Below are positions 49-45,236 of a DNA stretch of 64,000 nt, piece after piece. A program made the translations under genes and the position numbers. Position 1 is the stretch's first letter; each line of letters opens with the position of its first letter. The notes under the pieces are model-generated. The model did not search any database. It worked only from the letters and a program-made list of their open reading frames with translations, and was not told the origin of the DNA. Location of the stretch: the sequence record OR352942.1; one strand, given 5' to 3'. This DNA is from Escherichia phage AV112.

Positions 49-450
49 TTATAGATTCGGTTTATATGATTTAAATGTTTCGAATTCGCCTTTATTCATA
101 AGAGCTTTGAATTCGTCAGGACGCATAGCTTTGTCGTCGATAATCCAATCATATACTGGTTTATGTGTTAGCAAATTATGGTACTTCAATCCAATGTTTG
201 CCAAGTTCTGAATCAGACTTGGGAGAATGTCAATTGCTATACGACCAGGACCGACTGACTTCATACCACGAGCAGTGTAAAGCGTTATGGTATGCCCTGC
301 ATCATACAGGGCATTAATGGCAGACACCATTTCGACGTCTGGTTTGAAGTTCACGTAATCACGATTGTTATTCCACTCTGTTATACAATCATCGACATCA
401 AAACAAAGATTAAGCATGTTTTTTACACGGGGCATTAGATTCGTTCCCAT
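49..450 (-). CDS. HAD-superfamily phosphatase (small KdsC-like sugar-phosphate phosphatase)
   Basis: Translation has the HAD motif I FDVDDCIT and a C-terminal IIDDK acidic motif; the likely true start is the internal Met of MLNLCFDVDD. It lies in an operon with the isomerase and the NTase/kinase. Confidence 0.6.
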   Translation of the reverse strand: MGTNLMPRVKNMLNLCFDVDDCITEWNNNRDYVNFKPDVEMVSAINALYDAGHTITLYTARGMKSVGPGRIAIDILPSLIQNLANIGLKYHNLLTHKPVYDWIIDDKAMRPDEFKALMNKGEFETFKSYKPNL

Positions 451-2120
451 TGATGAGTGATATCGCCACCGATTGGACGATAGGAAACACCAGTTTCTTT
501 ATCAGTTAGTACCCATTTACCAGGATTTTTTGTAATCAGAGTAGCCGTTACAGGTTCTGCTACGTCATAACTAATAGAGCCGTCCTGAAGTACACGGCCC
601 ATGTTACGTAATTGCTTAGTCAGAAGTTCCATACCTTTATAATATGCGGCTACCGCTTTAAGTGGATTATTCTTGAAATAACCACCTAATGCAATCCAGA
701 TAATTGCCACTGCCAAATGATGATACTCGTTAAACGAACTCATCTTTCCATATTTGTAAACTAATGGATTGATGTTAATAGTCACATTACAAGTTGTTTC
801 ATCAATAGTAAACTGTCCCCAGGTCGGATTAGCGTTGAATTCATCATACCCTGAAACAGCATAAAGCACTTTAGCTTCGTCATACAATTTTGGTCCGTAA
901 ATCTTGGTTTCGCCAAAATATCCACGAGGGTCGATAAACTTGACTTCGCCGTTATCAGTAATCATAGTATTACTGAAGTTCGGGTCACCATGAATAACAG
1001 AGTACTGTCCCTGAGAACGGTTATGATAACGAATAAGGTGTTCTAAAGCTTGTTTCAACATTGGCTTCAGACGCCCAATCTTAGTGTAGTTCACATGTGT
1101 GATTTTACCAAATGAATCAATCAGTGGTTGAATACTTTCACAACGATCAATAACTTTCGTATAGAATTCTTTAGTGAAATCACGACGAACAGTTTCAGGA
1201 CTTACAAAATAAGTGTCTGTGCTGAATTTCAGTGCGTCTAAAATTGCATCAACAATTTGTGGACGAGCAAGACTCGATTTGGATTTAATATATTCAAATG
1301 CTGGCTTACCTTTAATGCGTTCCATTTCAAAGTTATTTTCATTAACAGAAACTAACTGAGGAACTGAATCTGATTTCACTTTAAGATACCATGAAATCTC
1401 ATCTTTCTGAAGAGCTCGGCCCTGTTCGGTTAATGCGAATTTAGTTACAGTTTCTTCACCAATTTCAACGGCATTAAAACTACGATTAAGTTCACGAACT
1501 TCATGAGCTTTTTCAAGTTTAGGCATATCACCTAAATCAATTAGATTCATAAGCTCTGATTTATTGAATGCACTGCCGTAAAGGAATTCTACGAAATCAC
1601 GTCCTTTGCAGTATTCATGAATTTCCTCATCAGTAGAACCCATATAGAATTCCCAGTCTTTGAACTGATAAATTCCTACAACATTACCACCTGTTGAACC
1701 TACGTTAGTGATATTTTCACCGTCGAAATTATATCGACATTCGTCGCCCTTAACATAGATTGCGTTAACATTCCAAGACCACGAACCAAAATCAGGAATA
1801 ATATCACACCAGTTAACAATTACATTATGGCCGTCTAAATCTTTGTGCAATTTAGCAAGAGCATAAGCAGAACCATATGCTTCATCAACTGTACGAATAG
1901 TCACATTGAACCCTTCTTGCTCACAATAAGCTCGAACAGTTTCAGCAAATTTTGAATGAACTACTACAATAATTTCATCTGCGCCAAGGTCAGAATAAAT
2001 TGTATACAAATTGCTCAGAATAGTGTCTTGTTTATAGTTAACAAGCACCTTAGGAATATGATGCGTTATTGGATACAAACGAGTTGCCAGTCCAGCACCA
2101 AGAATAACAGCTTTTTTCAT
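435..2120 (-). CDS. Bifunctional sugar-1-phosphate nucleotidyltransferase (N-terminal) and APH-fold sugar kinase (C-terminal)
   Basis: N-terminus AVILGAGLATRLYPIT resembles the GxGTRL motif of RmlA/GlmU-type NTP transferases. The C-terminal half carries HGDPNFSN and FIDPRG, the catalytic loop and metal-binding motifs of the aminoglycoside/choline/anomeric-sugar kinase fold. Confidence 0.6.
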   Translation of the reverse strand: MKKAVILGAGLATRLYPITHHIPKVLVNYKQDTILSNLYTIYSDLGADEIIVVVHSKFAETVRAYCEQEGFNVTIRTVDEAYGSAYALAKLHKDLDGHNVIVNWCDIIPDFGSWSWNVNAIYVKGDECRYNFDGENITNVGSTGGNVVGIYQFKDWEFYMGSTDEEIHEYCKGRDFVEFLYGSAFNKSELMNLIDLGDMPKLEKAHEVRELNRSFNAVEIGEETVTKFALTEQGRALQKDEISWYLKVKSDSVPQLVSVNENNFEMERIKGKPAFEYIKSKSSLARPQIVDAILDALKFSTDTYFVSPETVRRDFTKEFYTKVIDRCESIQPLIDSFGKITHVNYTKIGRLKPMLKQALEHLIRYHNRSQGQYSVIHGDPNFSNTMITDNGEVKFIDPRGYFGETKIYGPKLYDEAKVLYAVSGYDEFNANPTWGQFTIDETTCNVTININPLVYKYGKMSSFNEYHHLAVAIIWIALGGYFKNNPLKAVAAYYKGMELLTKQLRNMGRVLQDGSISYDVAEPVTATLITKNPGKWVLTDKETGVSYRPIGGDITHQWERI

Positions 2121-39800: not shown

Positions 39801-40259
39801 TTATAGGAGGGTAGTGAGCACCTTATATAATGATTTGCCCATTACATATTCCCATTGAGAAGGTTTAATTAAAGCGAATGCATCAAATTCAGGAATCTGA
39901 CGTCCGTCTTGGAATGTATGATAGGAATTACAAACACTGTTTCTGAATTGCTCGTGCTCTACAGGGATGGTATATAGGAACAGATGAATATTCTTATTGT
40001 CTGAGTAATGATGTTCACCTAGGTCTTTCAGGAAGGCAGGGTCATATTGTGTAAACCCAGTTTCTTCTTCGCATTCACGAACAGCGGCTTCGATAGGAGA
40101 TTCACCTGGCTCGACACGGCCTTTAGGAATATCCCACCGATGAGCTAAAGAACCTTTAGGACGAGAACCAGTTACACGCCCCATGAATAATTCTTTATCT
40201 TCGGTAAGGAAAATAATACCGGCTGATAGTTCTTTCACTTTATTTTTCTTACTCATCAT
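39801..40259 (-). CDS. nudE: Nudix hydrolase NudE
   Basis: Nudix box GRVEPGESPIEAAVRECEEETGF; lies next to e as in T4; the start among the two or three adjacent Met codons is uncertain. Confidence 0.85.
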   Translation of the reverse strand: MMSKKNKVKELSAGIIFLTEDKELFMGRVTGSRPKGSLAHRWDIPKGRVEPGESPIEAAVRECEEETGFTQYDPAFLKDLGEHHYSDNKNIHLFLYTIPVEHEQFRNSVCNSYHTFQDGRQIPEFDAFALIKPSQWEYVMGKSLYKVLTTLL

Positions 40260-40747
40260 CTCAAATTCCTGCATTCGGTAATAAAACGTTCAACTTCATT
40301 ATTCTTGGCCTTTATCTTGTCTTTACGTTCCTGTAAACTACTTTTAACAAGATTAATAATGATGGCGGCGGTACCGCCGCCAATGATGCCACCAACAACA
40401 CTTATGATACTAGATGCTAATAAGATAGCAATAATATCAACAAAACCGAAAGAACTCACCTTAGTACTGAAAAACCATATAGACGGCACAAATATAATCC
40501 ATCCTGTTATCCATTGGCACTTATTGAAAAACTTTTCAAGCTCAGCTTGAGTTGTTCGTATTACTTCATCGATAGGTTTATATCCATTAATGTATCTGTT
40601 CACGATAATACCTGCTGGCTGGTCGATTTTAAATTCTTGGCAAATATGTTTAACTAAGTAGGATGGACATCCTGTCCAATCTACTGAATAGTATGAAATA
40701 CCTTCATTGCCATCGTCTATATTAGACCAATATGTTTTGTTAATCAT
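40256..40747 (-). CDS. Membrane protein ending in a FITECR motif
   Basis: 163 aa with a C-terminal transmembrane region; ends ERFITECRNLR. Confidence 0.5.
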   Translation of the reverse strand: MINKTYWSNIDDGNEGISYYSVDWTGCPSYLVKHICQEFKIDQPAGIIVNRYINGYKPIDEVIRTTQAELEKFFNKCQWITGWIIFVPSIWFFSTKVSSFGFVDIIAILLASSIISVVGGIIGGGTAAIIINLVKSSLQERKDKIKAKNNEVERFITECRNLR

Positions 40748-41418
40748 TACCAGCCTTCCATAGGGAATTCCAGATAAACTTGAGCATTGACACGAATTTC
40801 ATTGGTAATCTTTTTAACTCGGTCTGTATTACGAGATACACGTCCGAACCAACGCCATCCATTACTAATTGCACGAGAACCAGTGTGCCATGTTTGCCAA
40901 TCAAACTGAAGAAGAGTACGATCTGGAGCTTCCCATTTCTCTAGTTCACCTTTTTCGATTTTTTCGAGGACTTCTTTGTGCCACTGGCGATAGATAAGTT
41001 CGCCATCAGGAATCTGACTGAACTCTGCAGTTCCTGTTGCAAAATGAGTAGGACACACATCAGCGTTAACAAGACCAAGAATATGTTCAGAATGGTAACG
41101 AGGGTTGTCATAGTCAGGTTGTCCTGCAGTAATAAAGTGTTGACCAACTGGAATATCAGGGCGTGGTACGTCATCATGGTGATAGCCTGGGATTGCAGGA
41201 TACCAACCAGGCATCAGCATGTGGACTCGTGAATCAAATACAACCTGGTCGGTGTTCCAATCATCAGGAAGATTTTGGATAAAGCTACGAGTAATTGGGC
41301 CACCATTATCAAAAGCAAAATTCAAATCGCAGTTAAAGAACATAGGCTCGTTTTTAATCTGGTTGTTTTTAATCTCATGAGCAAAACCACCTACTGCACG
41401 AGCTTGGCTATTAAACAT
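40747..41418 (-). CDS. Hypothetical protein
   Basis: 223 aa, His/Asp-rich ORF with no recognisable family. Confidence 0.5.
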   Translation of the reverse strand: MFNSQARAVGGFAHEIKNNQIKNEPMFFNCDLNFAFDNGGPITRSFIQNLPDDWNTDQVVFDSRVHMLMPGWYPAIPGYHHDDVPRPDIPVGQHFITAGQPDYDNPRYHSEHILGLVNADVCPTHFATGTAEFSQIPDGELIYRQWHKEVLEKIEKGELEKWEAPDRTLLQFDWQTWHTGSRAISNGWRWFGRVSRNTDRVKKITNEIRVNAQVYLEFPMEGW

Positions 41419-41434
41419 ATTATTTTCCTCGATA

Positions 41435-41740
41435 TTATTTTCCTCGGCATTCTTTAATGAAATTTTCTAGATTGGTAGATTCAATAGCTTTTTTACGAGC
41501 TTCTGCGTGTTCTTCTTCAGACAATTTACATTTATAATTGACCCAGGCATTATGGTCGAAACTAGTCGTGGCATATAATAACAATGCTCCGACGAATAAT
41601 AAAAACGGTGATAAGAATACAAAACCAGGAACACCATCCATATCGTAAGCCTTTTGTAATACTGCAACAGAAAGGGCCGCGTAAAAAGGTGATGCAAATA
41701 TTGTTAAAAGACCAATTCGGTTGGTTTCTGTTAATTTCAT
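41435..41740 (-). CDS. Membrane protein ending in a FIKECR motif
   Basis: 101 aa with two transmembrane helices; ends ENFIKECRGK. Confidence 0.5.
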   Translation of the reverse strand: MKLTETNRIGLLTIFASPFYAALSVAVLQKAYDMDGVPGFVFLSPFLLFVGALLLYATTSFDHNAWVNYKCKLSEEEHAEARKKAIESTNLENFIKECRGK

Positions 41741-41810: not shown

Positions 41811-42767
41811 TTATTTGAAAGGTTTCACCATATGAAAATTTTCTTTAAACCGTTTGATGTAATCATTTTTGCCGAGCTTATGATACATAGCCACTACTTC
41901 ATAATAGTTCTCGTATGCGTACTCACGGAACCAACCAGAGGTGATGCTTGTACAGACCTTTTCCAATGCCATCATGAAACTGGCTTCAGGGTTAATTTTA
42001 AAGTCATTAGGAATCTGAGAACGTTCTAATGCTAGTACACATGATTCTTCGTATACACCGGCCAATTTGACCATTTCTGGTAATGATTCGAACTTCTCTC
42101 GTGAGGTCATGACTTCAGAACCGTCTTTCATATAAAATGTATACGCTGGACGGTCTGTTAGCGCAATGGCTTCATGAATAGTATCATGGTCATATGTATA
42201 GATGTCATCTTTAAAGAACGCACTTTTAGAAGTGTCAAGAACTGGGTGAGCATAGTTCAAGGTTTCTTTCTGGCGTTTCAGCATAATTTCAGTAAGTTCA
42301 TCGTTCAGTGTAACACCTTTACCGCGAAGATACTGAATATGGTTCATAGTCTTTAAAAAGAATGGATTATTTTTCTTGAAACGATGAGACATCTTAATTG
42401 CAAGACACATCTCAGGAGTTGCCCAGTAAAACCCGTTCAAACGGTCTTTAGTCAAATTTTTCTTGGCGTATTTTAAAAGGTCATAAGAAGACGTGAAATC
42501 TTCAGGAGTGAGTTCACCGACTAATTCACGGACATTAGTGATTGCCGGAACAATATATGCTTCAAAATGAGTTTCGCGTCCGTTATGGAAACATTTGAAA
42601 ACTTGGACACCAGGGTTATCTTGATGAACGTATACACCCATCATTTGATTTTTGAATGCATTCCAAGAACCTTGGTCTGCAATAAAGTCCCAGTCACTAT
42701 TTTTGATAGCGTTAGAATCAATAAGACCGTGATAGTGAAGTGCACGAGAACCAATAACTAACATCAT
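41811..42767 (-). CDS. Hypothetical protein
   Basis: 318 aa ORF. Confidence 0.5.
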   Translation of the reverse strand: MMLVIGSRALHYHGLIDSNAIKNSDWDFIADQGSWNAFKNQMMGVYVHQDNPGVQVFKCFHNGRETHFEAYIVPAITNVRELVGELTPEDFTSSYDLLKYAKKNLTKDRLNGFYWATPEMCLAIKMSHRFKKNNPFFLKTMNHIQYLRGKGVTLNDELTEIMLKRQKETLNYAHPVLDTSKSAFFKDDIYTYDHDTIHEAIALTDRPAYTFYMKDGSEVMTSREKFESLPEMVKLAGVYEESCVLALERSQIPNDFKINPEASFMMALEKVCTSITSGWFREYAYENYYEVVAMYHKLGKNDYIKRFKENFHMVKPFK

Positions 42768-42795
42768 AATATTTTCCTCGGATTAATTCATTAAC

Positions 42796-43047
42796 TTAAA
42801 TTTCACGACATGCGATATCATATTCATCCCATAGGTCATCGTGTGAAGCCTCTACTAATGGAACGATTGTACCATTTATGTCTTCATTATAAGGGCAAAT
42901 TGTACAGTGTGCATCTTCGAATCGGATGCCTTTGTGTTCAGATTTTTTATAACGCATATCGAATATCTTTGCAAACTTTTCACGAGTAATGGTTTTAGCA
43001 ACCACTTTGGTTCCAACACTTTCGTAATAAATCATTGTGGACTCCAT
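42796..43047 (-). CDS. Small Cys/His-containing protein
   Basis: 83 aa; HCTICPYN...ACREI. Confidence 0.45.
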   Translation of the reverse strand: MESTMIYYESVGTKVVAKTITREKFAKIFDMRYKKSEHKGIRFEDAHCTICPYNEDINGTIVPLVEASHDDLWDEYDIACREI

Positions 43048-43063
43048 TTAATTTGATAGGACT

Positions 43064-43093
43064 ACTATAACATAGCCCTATCTTGTTGTAAAC
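43064..43093 (-). promoter_or_regulatory. Sigma70-type early promoter with palindromic -10 region
   Basis: Same architecture as the promoter at 41769, with the palindrome TAGGACTA/TAGCCCTA. Confidence 0.5.
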
Positions 43094-43097
43094 TGTT

Positions 43098-43295
43098 TTA
43101 GCAAGAATAACTAGATGATACCCAGCCTTGAACAGTAATACTATTATTTGATACCGAGATTGCATTCTGGAGATTCAAACCTGCATTATCTTCAATCCAC
43201 AATGTAACTTCTTCGCGTTCTTCTGTTGCAATTTGGAACAGGTTTTCTAGGGCAGCTACTGCCGTACGTACAGCACAATCCAATTCACGAGACAT
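43098..43295 (-). CDS. Small protein, C-terminal W-V-SSS-x-SC family (member 1)
   Basis: 65 aa; ends QGWVSSSYSC. Confidence 0.45.
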   Translation of the reverse strand: MSRELDCAVRTAVAALENLFQIATEEREEVTLWIEDNAGLNLQNAISVSNNSITVQGWVSSSYSC

Positions 43296-43304
43296 GTAGT
43301 TTCC

Positions 43305-43577
43305 TTAGCAAGTGTGAGAAGATGCAATCCAACCACCAGTTTCAAGGCTCAGGTTGTAGTCGTATTGGTAAACGTCAGCCCATTCAGCATAGCCGTTTTT
43401 TGTACAACGTTCAAGATCGGCTTTAAGTTGTCCGGGTGAATGATATGTTCCACCCATACCATAAGCTGGATACAAGTCGAATGTTGTGTTTTGTTTATCA
43501 GCAATTTCTTTGGCAGCCTCAATAGCTGCATAGATTTTTGCTACGGCTTCAGCCAGTTCGGTTTGTTCTTTAGACAT
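43305..43577 (-). CDS. Small protein, C-terminal W-I-ASS-x-TC family (member 2)
   Basis: 90 aa; ends GGWIASSHTC. Confidence 0.5.
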   Translation of the reverse strand: MSKEQTELAEAVAKIYAAIEAAKEIADKQNTTFDLYPAYGMGGTYHSPGQLKADLERCTKNGYAEWADVYQYDYNLSLETGGWIASSHTC

Positions 43578-43586
43578 AATGATTCC

Positions 43587-43892
43587 TTAGCACAACGCAG
43601 AAGACGAAACCCAAGCACCTTCAGTAATAACGTAACCATTACCTTCACGCTTAACATCGCCACCATTATTTTCAATTTCATCTTTCATCCACTGGGATAC
43701 GATTTCACCCTTAGGATAATAAGTACGACCGCTACCATAATCACCTACAGAAAATGATACGGCGTATTGGTCTGCGATCTTTGTTGCTTCTTCTTCGATA
43801 CGTTCAGCTTGATTCAGAAGTTTATAAATTGCATCTGAAGCGGATTTGGCATCATTAAACTCTGGTACTTTAATTTCAATAATCTTACTCAT
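43587..43892 (-). CDS. Small protein, C-terminal W-V-SSS-x-LC family (member 3)
   Basis: 101 aa; ends GAWVSSSALC. Confidence 0.5.
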   Translation of the reverse strand: MSKIIEIKVPEFNDAKSASDAIYKLLNQAERIEEEATKIADQYAVSFSVGDYGSGRTYYPKGEIVSQWMKDEIENNGGDVKREGNGYVITEGAWVSSSALC

Positions 43893-44248
43893 TTTCTACA
43901 TTCCTTAATAAAGTTTTCGATTGTTTCATTTTCACGTCTAGCTAGGAGTTCATTATAACTAATCATTTGAGAAGCGTAAACCTTTTTATTTTTCTTGTTA
44001 TGGTTTATAAAATCGTAGTAAAAATAGACTACAGTACAAAATGATGCGATGGATGCAAAGGCTTGGGTATACCGTAAGTCCTGCCATTGGTCTGTGAATC
44101 CACCAGTGTTCCCTATAAATCCTAACACAACGCCGTCAATAAGAAATCCAACTAATCCAAAGGCAAATCCCATGCCAATACTCATAATAAAAATTAGAAT
44201 GTTCTCACCAAGAGAAGGCCATACGGTTAAGAGTTGAGGCTTTTGCAT
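43889..44248 (-). CDS. Membrane protein ending in a FIKECR motif
   Basis: 119 aa with two transmembrane helices; ends ENFIKECRK. Confidence 0.5.
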   Translation of the reverse strand: MQKPQLLTVWPSLGENILIFIMSIGMGFAFGLVGFLIDGVVLGFIGNTGGFTDQWQDLRYTQAFASIASFCTVVYFYYDFINHNKKNKKVYASQMISYNELLARRENETIENFIKECRK

Positions 44249-44622
44249 CTTATTTCCTTAACGAATTCCATAGCTTCTTCATATTCGTACTTTTTAACAG
44301 CTTCATCATACTGAGCTTGGGCTTTTGCGCACTGAACTTTCCATTCTCTTAATCGGGCTCTATAATGACGTCCTTGGTGCCAATATCCTACCCAATTAAT
44401 AGGCATTAATAAAAACGGTACAATAAGTGGTGCGACGAACATTAATGAAAATGCTGCATCAGACGATATAACTTCACTAGAATCTAAAACAGCTCCTATA
44501 ATCGTAAAGATTAAAAATGCTAAAGCTAAAATAGGGCCAAATAGTACTTCGTTTGGGATTAATTTACGCTTGTATTCATACGCCCAGGGCTTAATTGGCA
44601 TGTATAGGGTTGGCTTTGACAT
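44227..44622 (-). CDS. Membrane protein
   Basis: Start placed at MSKPTLYMPIK; two transmembrane helices; ends EFVKEIRCKSLNS. Confidence 0.45.
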   Translation of the reverse strand: MSKPTLYMPIKPWAYEYKRKLIPNEVLFGPILALAFLIFTIIGAVLDSSEVISSDAAFSLMFVAPLIVPFLLMPINWVGYWHQGRHYRARLREWKVQCAKAQAQYDEAVKKYEYEEAMEFVKEIRCKSLNS

Positions 44623-45208
44623 ATTCTCTACATTCCATAATAAATTGCTCAAGGATTAAATTGTTAGTGAAATTAGGACTAACAACCATGGTTTCATAAA
44701 GCGCATCAATAGCACTTAAAGCATCAACTCTTTTAAGCAAAGGCTTGCCTTCATACATAGTTTCAGAATCGACGATTAACGTAAAGTAATATTTTTTATT
44801 ATTGACCAGAACTTCTGTATCAATATAAAACATGTTAGATCTTAAAAGCTTATCTCTAAAACCATAATAATCTTCAGAGCGTTCGCTGATATATTCCAAT
44901 TCAGTGTTTAAACAACAAACAGACCACGTAGGAGCAACGAAATCAGTGAATCTAATATCATGGTCTGCAACTAGTTTAGCAATAGCTCCGATATCATGAA
45001 TCATAATACCTGGGGCTAATAAAGATTTTCGGTTATTTGCATATTCAGTTGTCTCATAAGAAGACGACCAGTACCATTTACGTCCAGTTGCAACATATCG
45101 TAATGAATCAACTAAAGACGTAGGTGGATTTACCTTATTTCGGAACTCTTCGAACATTGAGTCAATATCATTATTTTGGTTTCGCATGTTAACTCCTTTA
45201 TTATCCAA
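44591..45208 (-). CDS. Hypothetical protein with FIMECR near the C-terminus
   Basis: 205 aa ORF. Confidence 0.45.
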   Translation of the reverse strand: MDNKGVNMRNQNNDIDSMFEEFRNKVNPPTSLVDSLRYVATGRKWYWSSSYETTEYANNRKSLLAPGIMIHDIGAIAKLVADHDIRFTDFVAPTWSVCCLNTELEYISERSEDYYGFRDKLLRSNMFYIDTEVLVNNKKYYFTLIVDSETMYEGKPLLKRVDALSAIDALYETMVVSPNFTNNLILEQFIMECREYVKANPIHAN

Positions 45209-45236
45209 AAGGAGGACCGGAGTCCTCCGTATTATT

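Follow-up and report, generated by a model that had tools for sequence, protein, structure and literature searches.

Three tandem genes with a shared C-terminal tail

The DNA analyzed here is a 64,000-nucleotide stretch of Escherichia phage AV112 (sequence record OR352942.1; the whole stretch is hereafter called the window), in which positions 43098..43892 carry three tandem genes for small proteins with a common C-terminal tail, W-x-[S/A]-S-S-x-x-C. A megablast search with positions 42700..44300 gave 100% identity to Escherichia phage AV113 and about 97% identity to RB69 (Mosigvirus, Straboviridae), and by this comparison the window phage is classed as an RB69-like phage of T4 type (Mosigvirus). 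In the RB69 annotation the trio corresponds to RB69ORF139c/138c, ORF137c and ORF136c, all labelled 'hypothetical' and located between e.3 and ORF135c/ORF134c. A previous sequence-only reading, made from the letters and a list of open reading frames (ORFs), had described three ORFs of 101, 90 and 65 amino acids (aa) ending in GAWVSSSALC, GGWIASSHTC and QGWVSSSYSC, and all three are confirmed by the ORF list. The tandem arrangement also stands, but the minus strand had been overlooked; transcription runs from the 101-aa through the 90-aa to the 65-aa gene. The bounds drawn at that time fit the trio and leave outside the partner gene, ORF134c. The features of the trio and its partner are as follows.

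43892..43587, minus strand: type-A tail protein, 101 aa (RB69ORF139c/138c equivalent), with N-terminal helix, GDYGSGRTYYP hairpin and tail GAWVSSSALC
43577..43305, minus strand: type-B tail protein, 90 aa (RB69ORF137c), with core AYGMGGTYHSPG and tail GGWIASSHTC
43295..43098, minus strand: type-C tail protein, 65 aa (RB69ORF136c), with tail QGWVSSSYSC
43590..43613, minus strand: tail codons W-V-S-S-S-A-L-C of the 101-aa protein (from sequence and motif statistics)
43308..43331, minus strand: tail codons W-I-A-S-S-H-T-C of the 90-aa protein (from sequence and motif statistics)
43101..43124, minus strand: tail codons W-V-S-S-S-Y-S-C of the 65-aa protein (from sequence and motif statistics)
41811..42767, minus strand: ORF134c, 318 aa, DUF7277 (residues 2-101) plus DUF7275 (residues 120-305), a predicted Pol-beta-type nucleotidyltransferase (NTase) of MenT/AbiEii-like fold

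The close packing of the trio, previously given as a start codon within about 10 nucleotides (nt) of each stop, is very regular: each spacer measures exactly 9 nt from stop to next ATG, and at both junctions (TAAGGAATCATTATG and TAAGGAAACTACATG) the Shine-Dalgarno sequence AAGGA overlaps the TAA stop. Since the ATG of the 101-aa gene overlaps the stop codon of e.3 (ATGA, 43892..43889), the trio is translationally coupled to the upstream genes e.5-e.4-e.3.

Conservation of the tail in a family of phage proteins

The tail is not a chance similarity: the window contains 1663 stop-to-stop segments of 20 aa or more, and W.[SA]SS..C stands at the end of the three trio members only. The products are otherwise diverged, as had been recognized, and BLASTP (90 aa versus 101 aa, E=3e-6; 65 aa versus the other two, E=4e-4 and 2e-3) identifies them as paralogues. 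The profile search recommended by the sequence-only reading assigned the 101-aa (E=1.3e-22) and 90-aa (E=1.9e-18) proteins to phrog_899 and the 65-aa protein (E=1.6e-36) to phrog_4882, both listed in PHROGs as of unknown function, and the homologues keep the tail. A hidden Markov model (HMM) of our family alignment A3 detected the 101-aa protein with E=4e-24 and the 65-aa protein with E=4e-5. Neither the three proteins nor typical family members matched anything in Pfam, NCBIfam or PADLOC, and a profile search of the PDB with the family alignment returned only designed helical bundles at E>1e-3.

For a wider view, a profile search of 1.84 billion representative proteins was carried out, giving 180 matches at E<=1e-3. 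Motif statistics were taken from 153 proteins, that is, the 150 matches listed of these 180 together with the homologues found earlier, 146 of the 153 being small and 7 large. The exact C-terminal sequence W-x-[S/A/P]-S-S-x-x-C was found in 133 of these 146 small homologues, and nine further small homologues carry one extra residue after the Cys. Within the exact-tail group, each of W(-7), S(-4), S(-3) and C(0) occurs in no fewer than 132 of the 133 proteins. The tail, for which conservation in other phages had been named beforehand as the decisive observation, is therefore near-invariant both in this diverse set of homologues and in more than 100 viral loci. The conserved Cys to which attention had been drawn is real; it is not the sole key residue, since Trp and both Ser show the same invariance, and an autonomous metal-binding site finds no support, the small proteins having one Cys only and no further conserved metal ligand. 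A second, word-indexed search yielded 688 clusters, all unnamed or 'hypothetical', including Myxococcus phage Mx1 and many phage-sized contigs. Large proteins with Ig/PKD repeats that appeared in the deep search (P0022, P0049 and others) were set aside as false positives caused by their repeats; P0049, for one, has Ig, PKD and Listeria-Bacteroides repeat domains, and the YGxGG-type core motif was seen at the matched stretch in none of the 7 large proteins. On the sequence evidence, the tail proteins constitute a large, phage-restricted and previously uncharacterized family.

Family members range from about 65 to 120 aa and are acidic (median isoelectric point (pI) 4.4, net charge -8.5). The consensus comprises an N-terminal helix (..EAExIADExG..), F-x-F, a hairpin YGMGGTYYP or GDYGSGRTYYP, an acidic Trp/Ser-rich linker and the terminal G-W-x-S-S-S-x-x-C; the 65-aa paralogue has lost the YGxGG hairpin and retains the helix, a hairpin and the tail alone. 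One or two additional W-x-S-S-[D/E/N] units occur inside the linker of about 25% of the members (for instance RWESSSEGWESSSEGWVSSSSQC), as would be expected if acceptor or docking sites were repeated. In 107 distinct DNA tails, all six Ser codons (TCN and AGY) are used at both invariant Ser positions, and the Cys is encoded by TGC as well as TGT; because the Ser codons come from two unlinked boxes, selection must have acted on the amino acids and not on an overlapping DNA or ribosome-binding signal. Retention of the tail as the ribosome-binding site of the next gene was considered in this connection and is ruled out, the 65-aa gene having the tail without a following start and the codons varying freely.

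In the RB69 reference (AY303349 69734..70040; locus L001 5888..6194) a frameshift splits the type-A gene into ORF139c (71 aa) and ORF138c (33 aa). The intact type-A protein is found at 99% identity or more in at least 126 of 394 matching records, and the gene is unbroken in most other Mosigvirus records; the RB69 frameshift is either a loss in the laboratory strain or a sequencing error, and it suggests that the type-A gene is dispensable in laboratory culture.

Structure prediction, another of the checks proposed in advance, gave a confident alpha+beta fold with a flexible tail. The AlphaFold2 model of the 101-aa protein, built from a 125-sequence alignment (mean predicted local distance difference test score (pLDDT) 91, predicted template modelling score (pTM) 0.78), contains a 29-residue helix (residues 15-43), a small sheet of which the Gly-rich hairpin is part, and the tail Trp in the last strand (residues 93-96). 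The last five residues were modelled with low confidence (pLDDT 55), and this C-terminal end is probably flexible. A fold search of the PDB with the small protein found no known structural relative, and the matches in BFVD were to its own family only; the sponges Acb2/Vs.4, Tad1 and Tad2 show no likeness to it by PDB fold, BFVD or Pfam.

Linkage of the tail genes to a DUF7275 transferase gene

A first hint of partnership came from two unrelated metagenomic phage contigs, where a DUF7277+DUF7275 gene lies immediately downstream of family members. The linkage was then examined in both directions. Forty-two IMG/VR loci were retrieved by the small-protein peptide YGMGGTY alone and combined with 4 other loci, and a DUF7275 homologue lies downstream on the same strand in 44 of these 46, the two exceptions being contig ends. 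Conversely, among 80 loci retrieved by transferase peptides alone, HMM-detected tail genes stand upstream in 72, and three more carry upstream genes with divergent tails (WVQSSC, NWDSSTC and WDSSSANC). After collapse of identical transferases 98 loci were left; tail genes are upstream and on the same strand in 90 of them, and in none do they lie downstream or on the opposite strand. The number of tail genes in these 90 loci ranges from one to five (one copy in 36 loci, two in 33, three in 18 and more in 3). De novo clustering of the ORFs from 126 loci showed that the tail family and the transferase are the only two families common to more than 100 loci, the next real family being present in 43, and the window neighbours ORF135c (19 of 127 loci), e.3 and ORF133c are clade-specific. 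The pairing was seen also in annotated genomes of Phapecoctavirus, Otagovirus and Acinetobacter T4-like phages. Neighbourhood conservation in related phages, the remaining check that had been called for, thus takes the form of trio-type genes upstream of a DUF7275 transferase, and the tail proteins together with the DUF7277/DUF7275 transferase are shown to form a conserved two-component phage module.

In T4 (67652..68319; locus L137 7653..8320), e.3 directly adjoins e.2, and the trio and the transferase are both missing. By this comparison the trio, with ORF135c, ORF134c, ORF133c and ORF132c, is identified as an accessory insertion in the RB69-like phages. A 20-kb T4 stretch gave no transferase match and a single weak match to the core of the tail family (E=9e-4, without the tail) in the tk.1/tk.2 region (L137 ~347..717).

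Several individual loci are of note in their own right. In Streptomyces phage Wakanda (L130 2851..3893) and Gordonia phage Smoothie (L131 2809..3893) the transferase homologues measure only 248-263 aa and are not preceded by a tail-family gene; in both, a 97-99 aa acidic Trp-rich protein of another family follows the transferase, with stop and start overlapping, and in Smoothie a tRNA cluster begins about 1.2 kb downstream of the transferase. In the Phapecoctavirus Escherichia phage nieznany (MN850598; L127 1929..2913) three tail genes precede the transferase, with the C-terminal sequences NWHPSSLSC, VWHSSSC and VWISSSSMC; the protein ending in VWHSSSC also has DWQSSSC internally. Interspersed with these genes is one labelled as a vs.4 homologue, and genes of the SIR2 family and Dcm lie nearby; T4 Vs.4 is the sponge Acb2, directed against the cyclic-oligonucleotide-based antiphage signalling system (CBASS), and the surroundings in nieznany resemble a counter-defence region. 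Over the 6-16 kb covered per locus, tRNA genes are present in 27 of 136 loci, several of them not T4-like (many of the loci are interrelated and the counts are not independent), and genes for RNA ligases of Rnl1 or Rnl2 type in 15 loci; this is a weak hint, from a minority of loci only, that the module resides in tRNA-related neighbourhoods.

The partner transferase ORF134c

ORF134c belongs to phrog_2141 and to Pfam DUF7277/DUF7275, none of which has an assigned function. Its nearest structural neighbours are MenT1 (the best), MenT3, MenT4, ANT(2'') and LnuA, and its bi-lobed Pol-beta NTase fold resembles the solved MenT structures. All of these neighbours transfer a nucleotide monophosphate (NMP) to a hydroxyl group, which is the tRNA 3'-OH for MenT1, MenT3 and MenT4 and an antibiotic hydroxyl for ANT(2'') and LnuA. 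In 62 homologues with 47-75% identity to the window protein, the residues G6, S7, D25, D27 and E69 are invariant and make up the Pol-beta NTase signature G-S...D-x-D, and the helical C-terminal domain also carries many invariant polar residues. By sequence, ORF134c stands apart from the characterized enzymes: the same 62 homologues matched only DUF7277 and DUF7275 in Pfam, even at E<=10, with no AbiEii/DUF1814 match, and ORF134c gave no match in PADLOC and no sequence or profile match in the PDB. An assignment of DUF7275 as an HD phosphohydrolase domain was considered and is unsupported by Pfam. The residues C243 (in GVYEExCVLALER), C272 (in EKVCTSITSGWFREY), H128, H174, H194 and H198 are likewise invariant in the 62 homologues; these Cys and His could form a metal or redox site, possibly relevant to the terminal Cys of the partner.

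Homologues of ORF134c fall into more than 2000 protein clusters, all unnamed, and tblastn detected them in 733 phage records. Their carriers include T4-like phages of Escherichia, Klebsiella, Enterobacter, Aeromonas and Acinetobacter, as well as Phapecoctavirus, Otagovirus, jumbo phages and many environmental contigs. A scan of 185,579 bacterial species genomes gave five transferase matches, four on phage-sized contigs (73-167 kb) of metagenome-assembled genomes and one on a 2.3-kb fragment. As judged from these searches, the module is essentially phage-only, and mostly of virulent phages.

Features flanking the module

The remaining features of the region are listed below.

43889..44248, minus strand: e.3, predicted membrane protein, the upstream gene with ATGA overlap to the first tail gene
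43980..43952, minus strand: nearest promoter-like site upstream of the trio, TTTACG-17-TATAAT, located in the 3' portion of e.3
43092..43064, minus strand: sigma-70/T4-early-like promoter TTTACA-17-TATAGT, downstream of the trio and facing ORF135c and ORF134c
42796..43047, minus strand: ORF135c, 83 aa as longest ORF, between the trio and the transferase; phrog_3723 aligns to residues 5-83

The promoter at 43064..43093, to which the sequence-only reading had ascribed expression of the whole trio from upstream, is a minus-strand site that lies downstream of it. It begins 6 nt past the stop codon (43098..43100) of the 65-aa gene, and therefore serves ORF135c and ORF134c and not the trio. The site at 43980..43952 is a consensus match only, such sites being as many in the region as expected from shuffled sequence. 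Between e.6 and e.5 (45211..45228), a strong bidirectional terminator-like hairpin of 7 pairs (GGAGGACCGGAGTCCTCC), with a run of T after it on the minus strand, is the probable boundary at which the transcription unit of e.5, e.4, e.3 and the trio begins. The true start of ORF135c is likely the ATG at 43035, with GGAG 7 nt upstream, which gives the 79 aa of the RB69 annotation and fits the PHROG alignment; its product contains H-C-T-I-C-P.

A second shared C-terminal motif flanks the module in five minus-strand ORFs (40256..40798, 41435..41740, 43889..44248, 44227..44652 and 44591..45208). The ends are ERFITECRNLR for the ORF at 40256..40798 (the RB69 e.2 position), ENFIKECRGK for ORF133c, ENFIKECRK for e.3 and EFVKEIRCKSLNS for e.4, and e.5 has EQFIMECREY followed by 9 further residues; e.2, e.3 and e.4 are annotated as predicted membrane proteins. 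Ends of this type recur in another T4-like locus (L068), as ENFIRMCRKN, FINDCRKARK, FITECRGKNE and ENFISRCRIKR. The motif is sited at gene junctions with ATGA-type overlaps and may in part be a translational-coupling signal.

Possible roles of the tail proteins

A functional partnership between the tail family and the transferase family is, in our judgement, highly probable, and from synteny and chemistry we lean, by a small measure, to the view that the tail is the element that contacts the transferase. The explanation that we favour, tentatively, is that the small proteins act as partners and clients of the transferase and are nucleotidylated on the tail Ser. According to this proposal, the small proteins would be cognate partners of the enzyme, and the flexible tail would enter its acceptor or active-site cleft; the enzyme would put an NMP on a hydroxyl of the invariant Ser-Ser pair, the Trp would anchor the tail, the terminal Cys and carboxylate would act in recognition or in follow-up chemistry, and the paralogues would represent a set of clients sharing one enzyme tag. 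The covalent step taken by itself, Ser nucleotidylation of the tail by the transferase, we regard as rather doubtful. Unlikely, in our view, is the further extension that the tail is a genetically encoded tag, O-nucleotidylated or extended from a nucleotide primer on the Ser pair and perhaps then subject to Cys chemistry, whose conjugates hit host targets such as tRNA-directed or nucleotide-signalling defences.

The client explanation is preferred because the NTase relatives transfer NMP to hydroxyl groups and the Ser-Ser pair of the tail is exposed, flexible, invariant and sometimes repeated, and also because several ancient paralogue types adjoin a single enzyme, the shortest of them keeping the helix, a hairpin and the tail. 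The conserved adjacency of the tail genes to an NTase gene whose structural relatives have this chemistry lends indirect support to the previous suggestion of a modification site. In addition, MenT-family active sites are able to modify a protein Ser/Thr hydroxyl, through auto-phosphorylation (PMC11375011). On the other side, several observations weigh against the client explanation. The enzymes nearest in structure have tRNA or small molecules, and not proteins, as substrates, their partner proteins are inhibitors, and a small gene upstream is the classic antitoxin-toxin order. Eight of the 98 transferase loci lack detectable tail genes, as do the actinophage homologues; the median gap between tail genes and transferase across loci is 331 nt, and in the window phage a promoter and the clade-specific ORF135c are interposed. 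Divergent members place anything from 0 to 2 residues between S-S and C (WQPSSC, WYTSSC), and the terminal Cys is left unexplained by Ser nucleotidylation or by any other model considered.

A close second to nucleotidylation, though unlikely in itself, is that the small acidic proteins are antitoxin-like or pseudosubstrate inhibitors that hold a MenT-like transferase inactive or tune its specificity, without covalent modification, binding either through the long N-terminal helix, in the manner of MenA1 on MenT1, or by using the acidic linker and tail to plug a basic acceptor cleft. MenT toxins attach nucleotides to the 3' ends of tRNAs, and MenT1, the best structural match of ORF134c, is controlled by the upstream-encoded 68-aa helical antitoxin MenA1, which blocks the active sites (PMC10435456); the N-terminal helix of MenA1 triggers an inhibitory auto-phosphorylation of the active-site Thr, the G-[S/T] residue (PMC11375011), and ORF134c retains the equivalent Ser, the invariant S7. 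With this precedent agree the position of the tail genes, always upstream where present, the conserved 29-residue helix and the acidity of the family. Yet a single inhibitor would do, and two or three ancient paralogue types have been kept together in different genera; what the 65-aa type retains is the tail and not the body, and an invariant Ser-Ser plus Cys under protein-level selection over very deep divergence looks more chemical than steric. The small proteins also show no sequence or fold similarity to MenA1 or COG5340 antitoxins, and virulent phages have no obvious need for an addiction module.

Quite improbable is the alternative that the tail proteins are independent effectors acting on a host target, as an anti-defence decoy, a nucleic-acid mimic or a sponge for small molecules or nucleotides (which would use the Gly-rich hairpin and the Ser-rich tail), and merely co-travel with the transferase in an accessory cassette. 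The tail genes form tandem arrays of small, acidic, early-region paralogues of a kind typical of phage counter-defence genes, and this alternative would suit the promoter between trio and transferase in the window, the RB69 frameshift, which suggests that the type-A gene is dispensable in the laboratory, and the vs.4 homologue among the nieznany tail genes; it can hardly account for the order and strand kept in 90 of 98 loci of T4-like, Phapecoctavirus, Otagovirus, jumbo and metagenomic phages that share no other neighbour gene, and no fold similarity to known sponges or mimics was detected.

A role of the terminal Cys in metal binding, a disulfide or processing as in ribosomally synthesized and post-translationally modified peptides (RiPPs), including a lanthionine- or aminovinyl-cysteine (AviCys)-like ring made by Ser dehydration and Cys addition, or an intermolecular metal or disulfide clasp with the two invariant Cys of ORF134c, is very improbable: in epidermin-type peptides the AviCys ring arises from S-x-x-C-COOH, an ending present in 133 of 146 homologues, tandem multi-copy precursor-like genes beside one enzyme resemble RiPP clusters, and the tail Cys could join C243, C272 and several His of ORF134c in a metal site or a disulfide, but no conserved LanB/C/M/KC/L, LanD/HFCD, YcaO or radical-SAM gene lies nearby (clustering of the ORFs from 126 loci left the transferase as the only shared neighbour, and the Pfam labels of neighbouring genes in the two metagenomic contigs include none of these enzymes), the proteins are confidently folded domains and not leader-core peptides, divergent members have S-S-C without spacer and the motif occurs also internally, a lone Cys cannot make a metal site, and the cytoplasm is reducing.

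Comparison with known systems and significance

The module is like MenAT1 and AbiEii (DUF1814) in the small gene upstream of a bi-lobed Pol-beta-type NTase, in the G-S...D-x-D signature and in a partner with a long N-terminal helix. It differs in that ORF134c lies outside PF08843/AbiEii by sequence and, compared with MenT1, is about 120 residues longer, with a conserved helical domain of its own (DUF7275); in that the tail protein has an unrelated alpha+beta fold, occurs in one to five copies and ends in a W-x-S-S-x-x-C tail found in no MenA; and in being confined to phages and not found in bacterial chromosomes. In the type VII toxin-antitoxin system HepT-MntA (HEPN/MNT), a minimal NTase adenylylates its partner, a HEPN RNase, on Tyr. 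Here too a Pol-beta-fold NTase stands beside a small partner, which in that system is covalently nucleotidylated on a side-chain hydroxyl, a precedent for the mechanism that we favour; unlike HepT, the tail proteins lack a conserved R-x4-6-H (in the family alignments, neither Arg nor His forms a conserved column) and a HEPN-like fold match, and the gene order and NTase size are different. GlnD and GlnE are NTase-fold enzymes that reversibly uridylylate or adenylylate a protein, PII and glutamine synthetase respectively, on a Tyr of a flexible internal loop. A small regulatory protein with a flexible acceptor segment and an NTase-fold enzyme with an extra helical domain are common to both cases, whereas no homology was detected, the acceptor there is Tyr in place of a C-terminal Ser-Ser-x-x-Cys, and the HD-likeness of DUF7275 lacks Pfam support. 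ANT(2'')/AadB and LnuA, in contrast, act on small molecules as single-gene resistance determinants with no partner proteins. In microcin C a nucleotide is attached at the C-terminus of a peptide, by the enzyme MccB, which is E1-like and not of Pol-beta type; microcin C and the epidermin/AviCys RiPPs share with the module a chemistry of the C-terminal residue and multi-copy small genes beside an enzyme, and are set apart by their defining enzymes, absent here, and by the folded domains and variable motif spacing of the tail proteins.

The window proteins are clear members of phrog_899, phrog_4882 and phrog_2141 and of DUF7277/DUF7275, for which the annotations returned record neither the tail motif nor the pairing, and a literature search found no paper on the tail family or on the transferase family. 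The small-protein family, its tail and the pairing thus appear to be undescribed, the transferase being a fold-level relative of a known toxin family. That virulent phages carry a MenT-like enzyme suggests that phages turn to their own ends the chemistry of a bacterial toxin family directed at tRNA, and the clades that carry the module include several genera used in phage therapy. If the tail is a substrate, it would represent a new kind of viral protein modification with several clients per enzyme; if it is an inhibitor, it would define a new class of antitoxin with a pseudosubstrate tail. Either outcome would annotate hundreds of genes now labelled 'hypothetical'.

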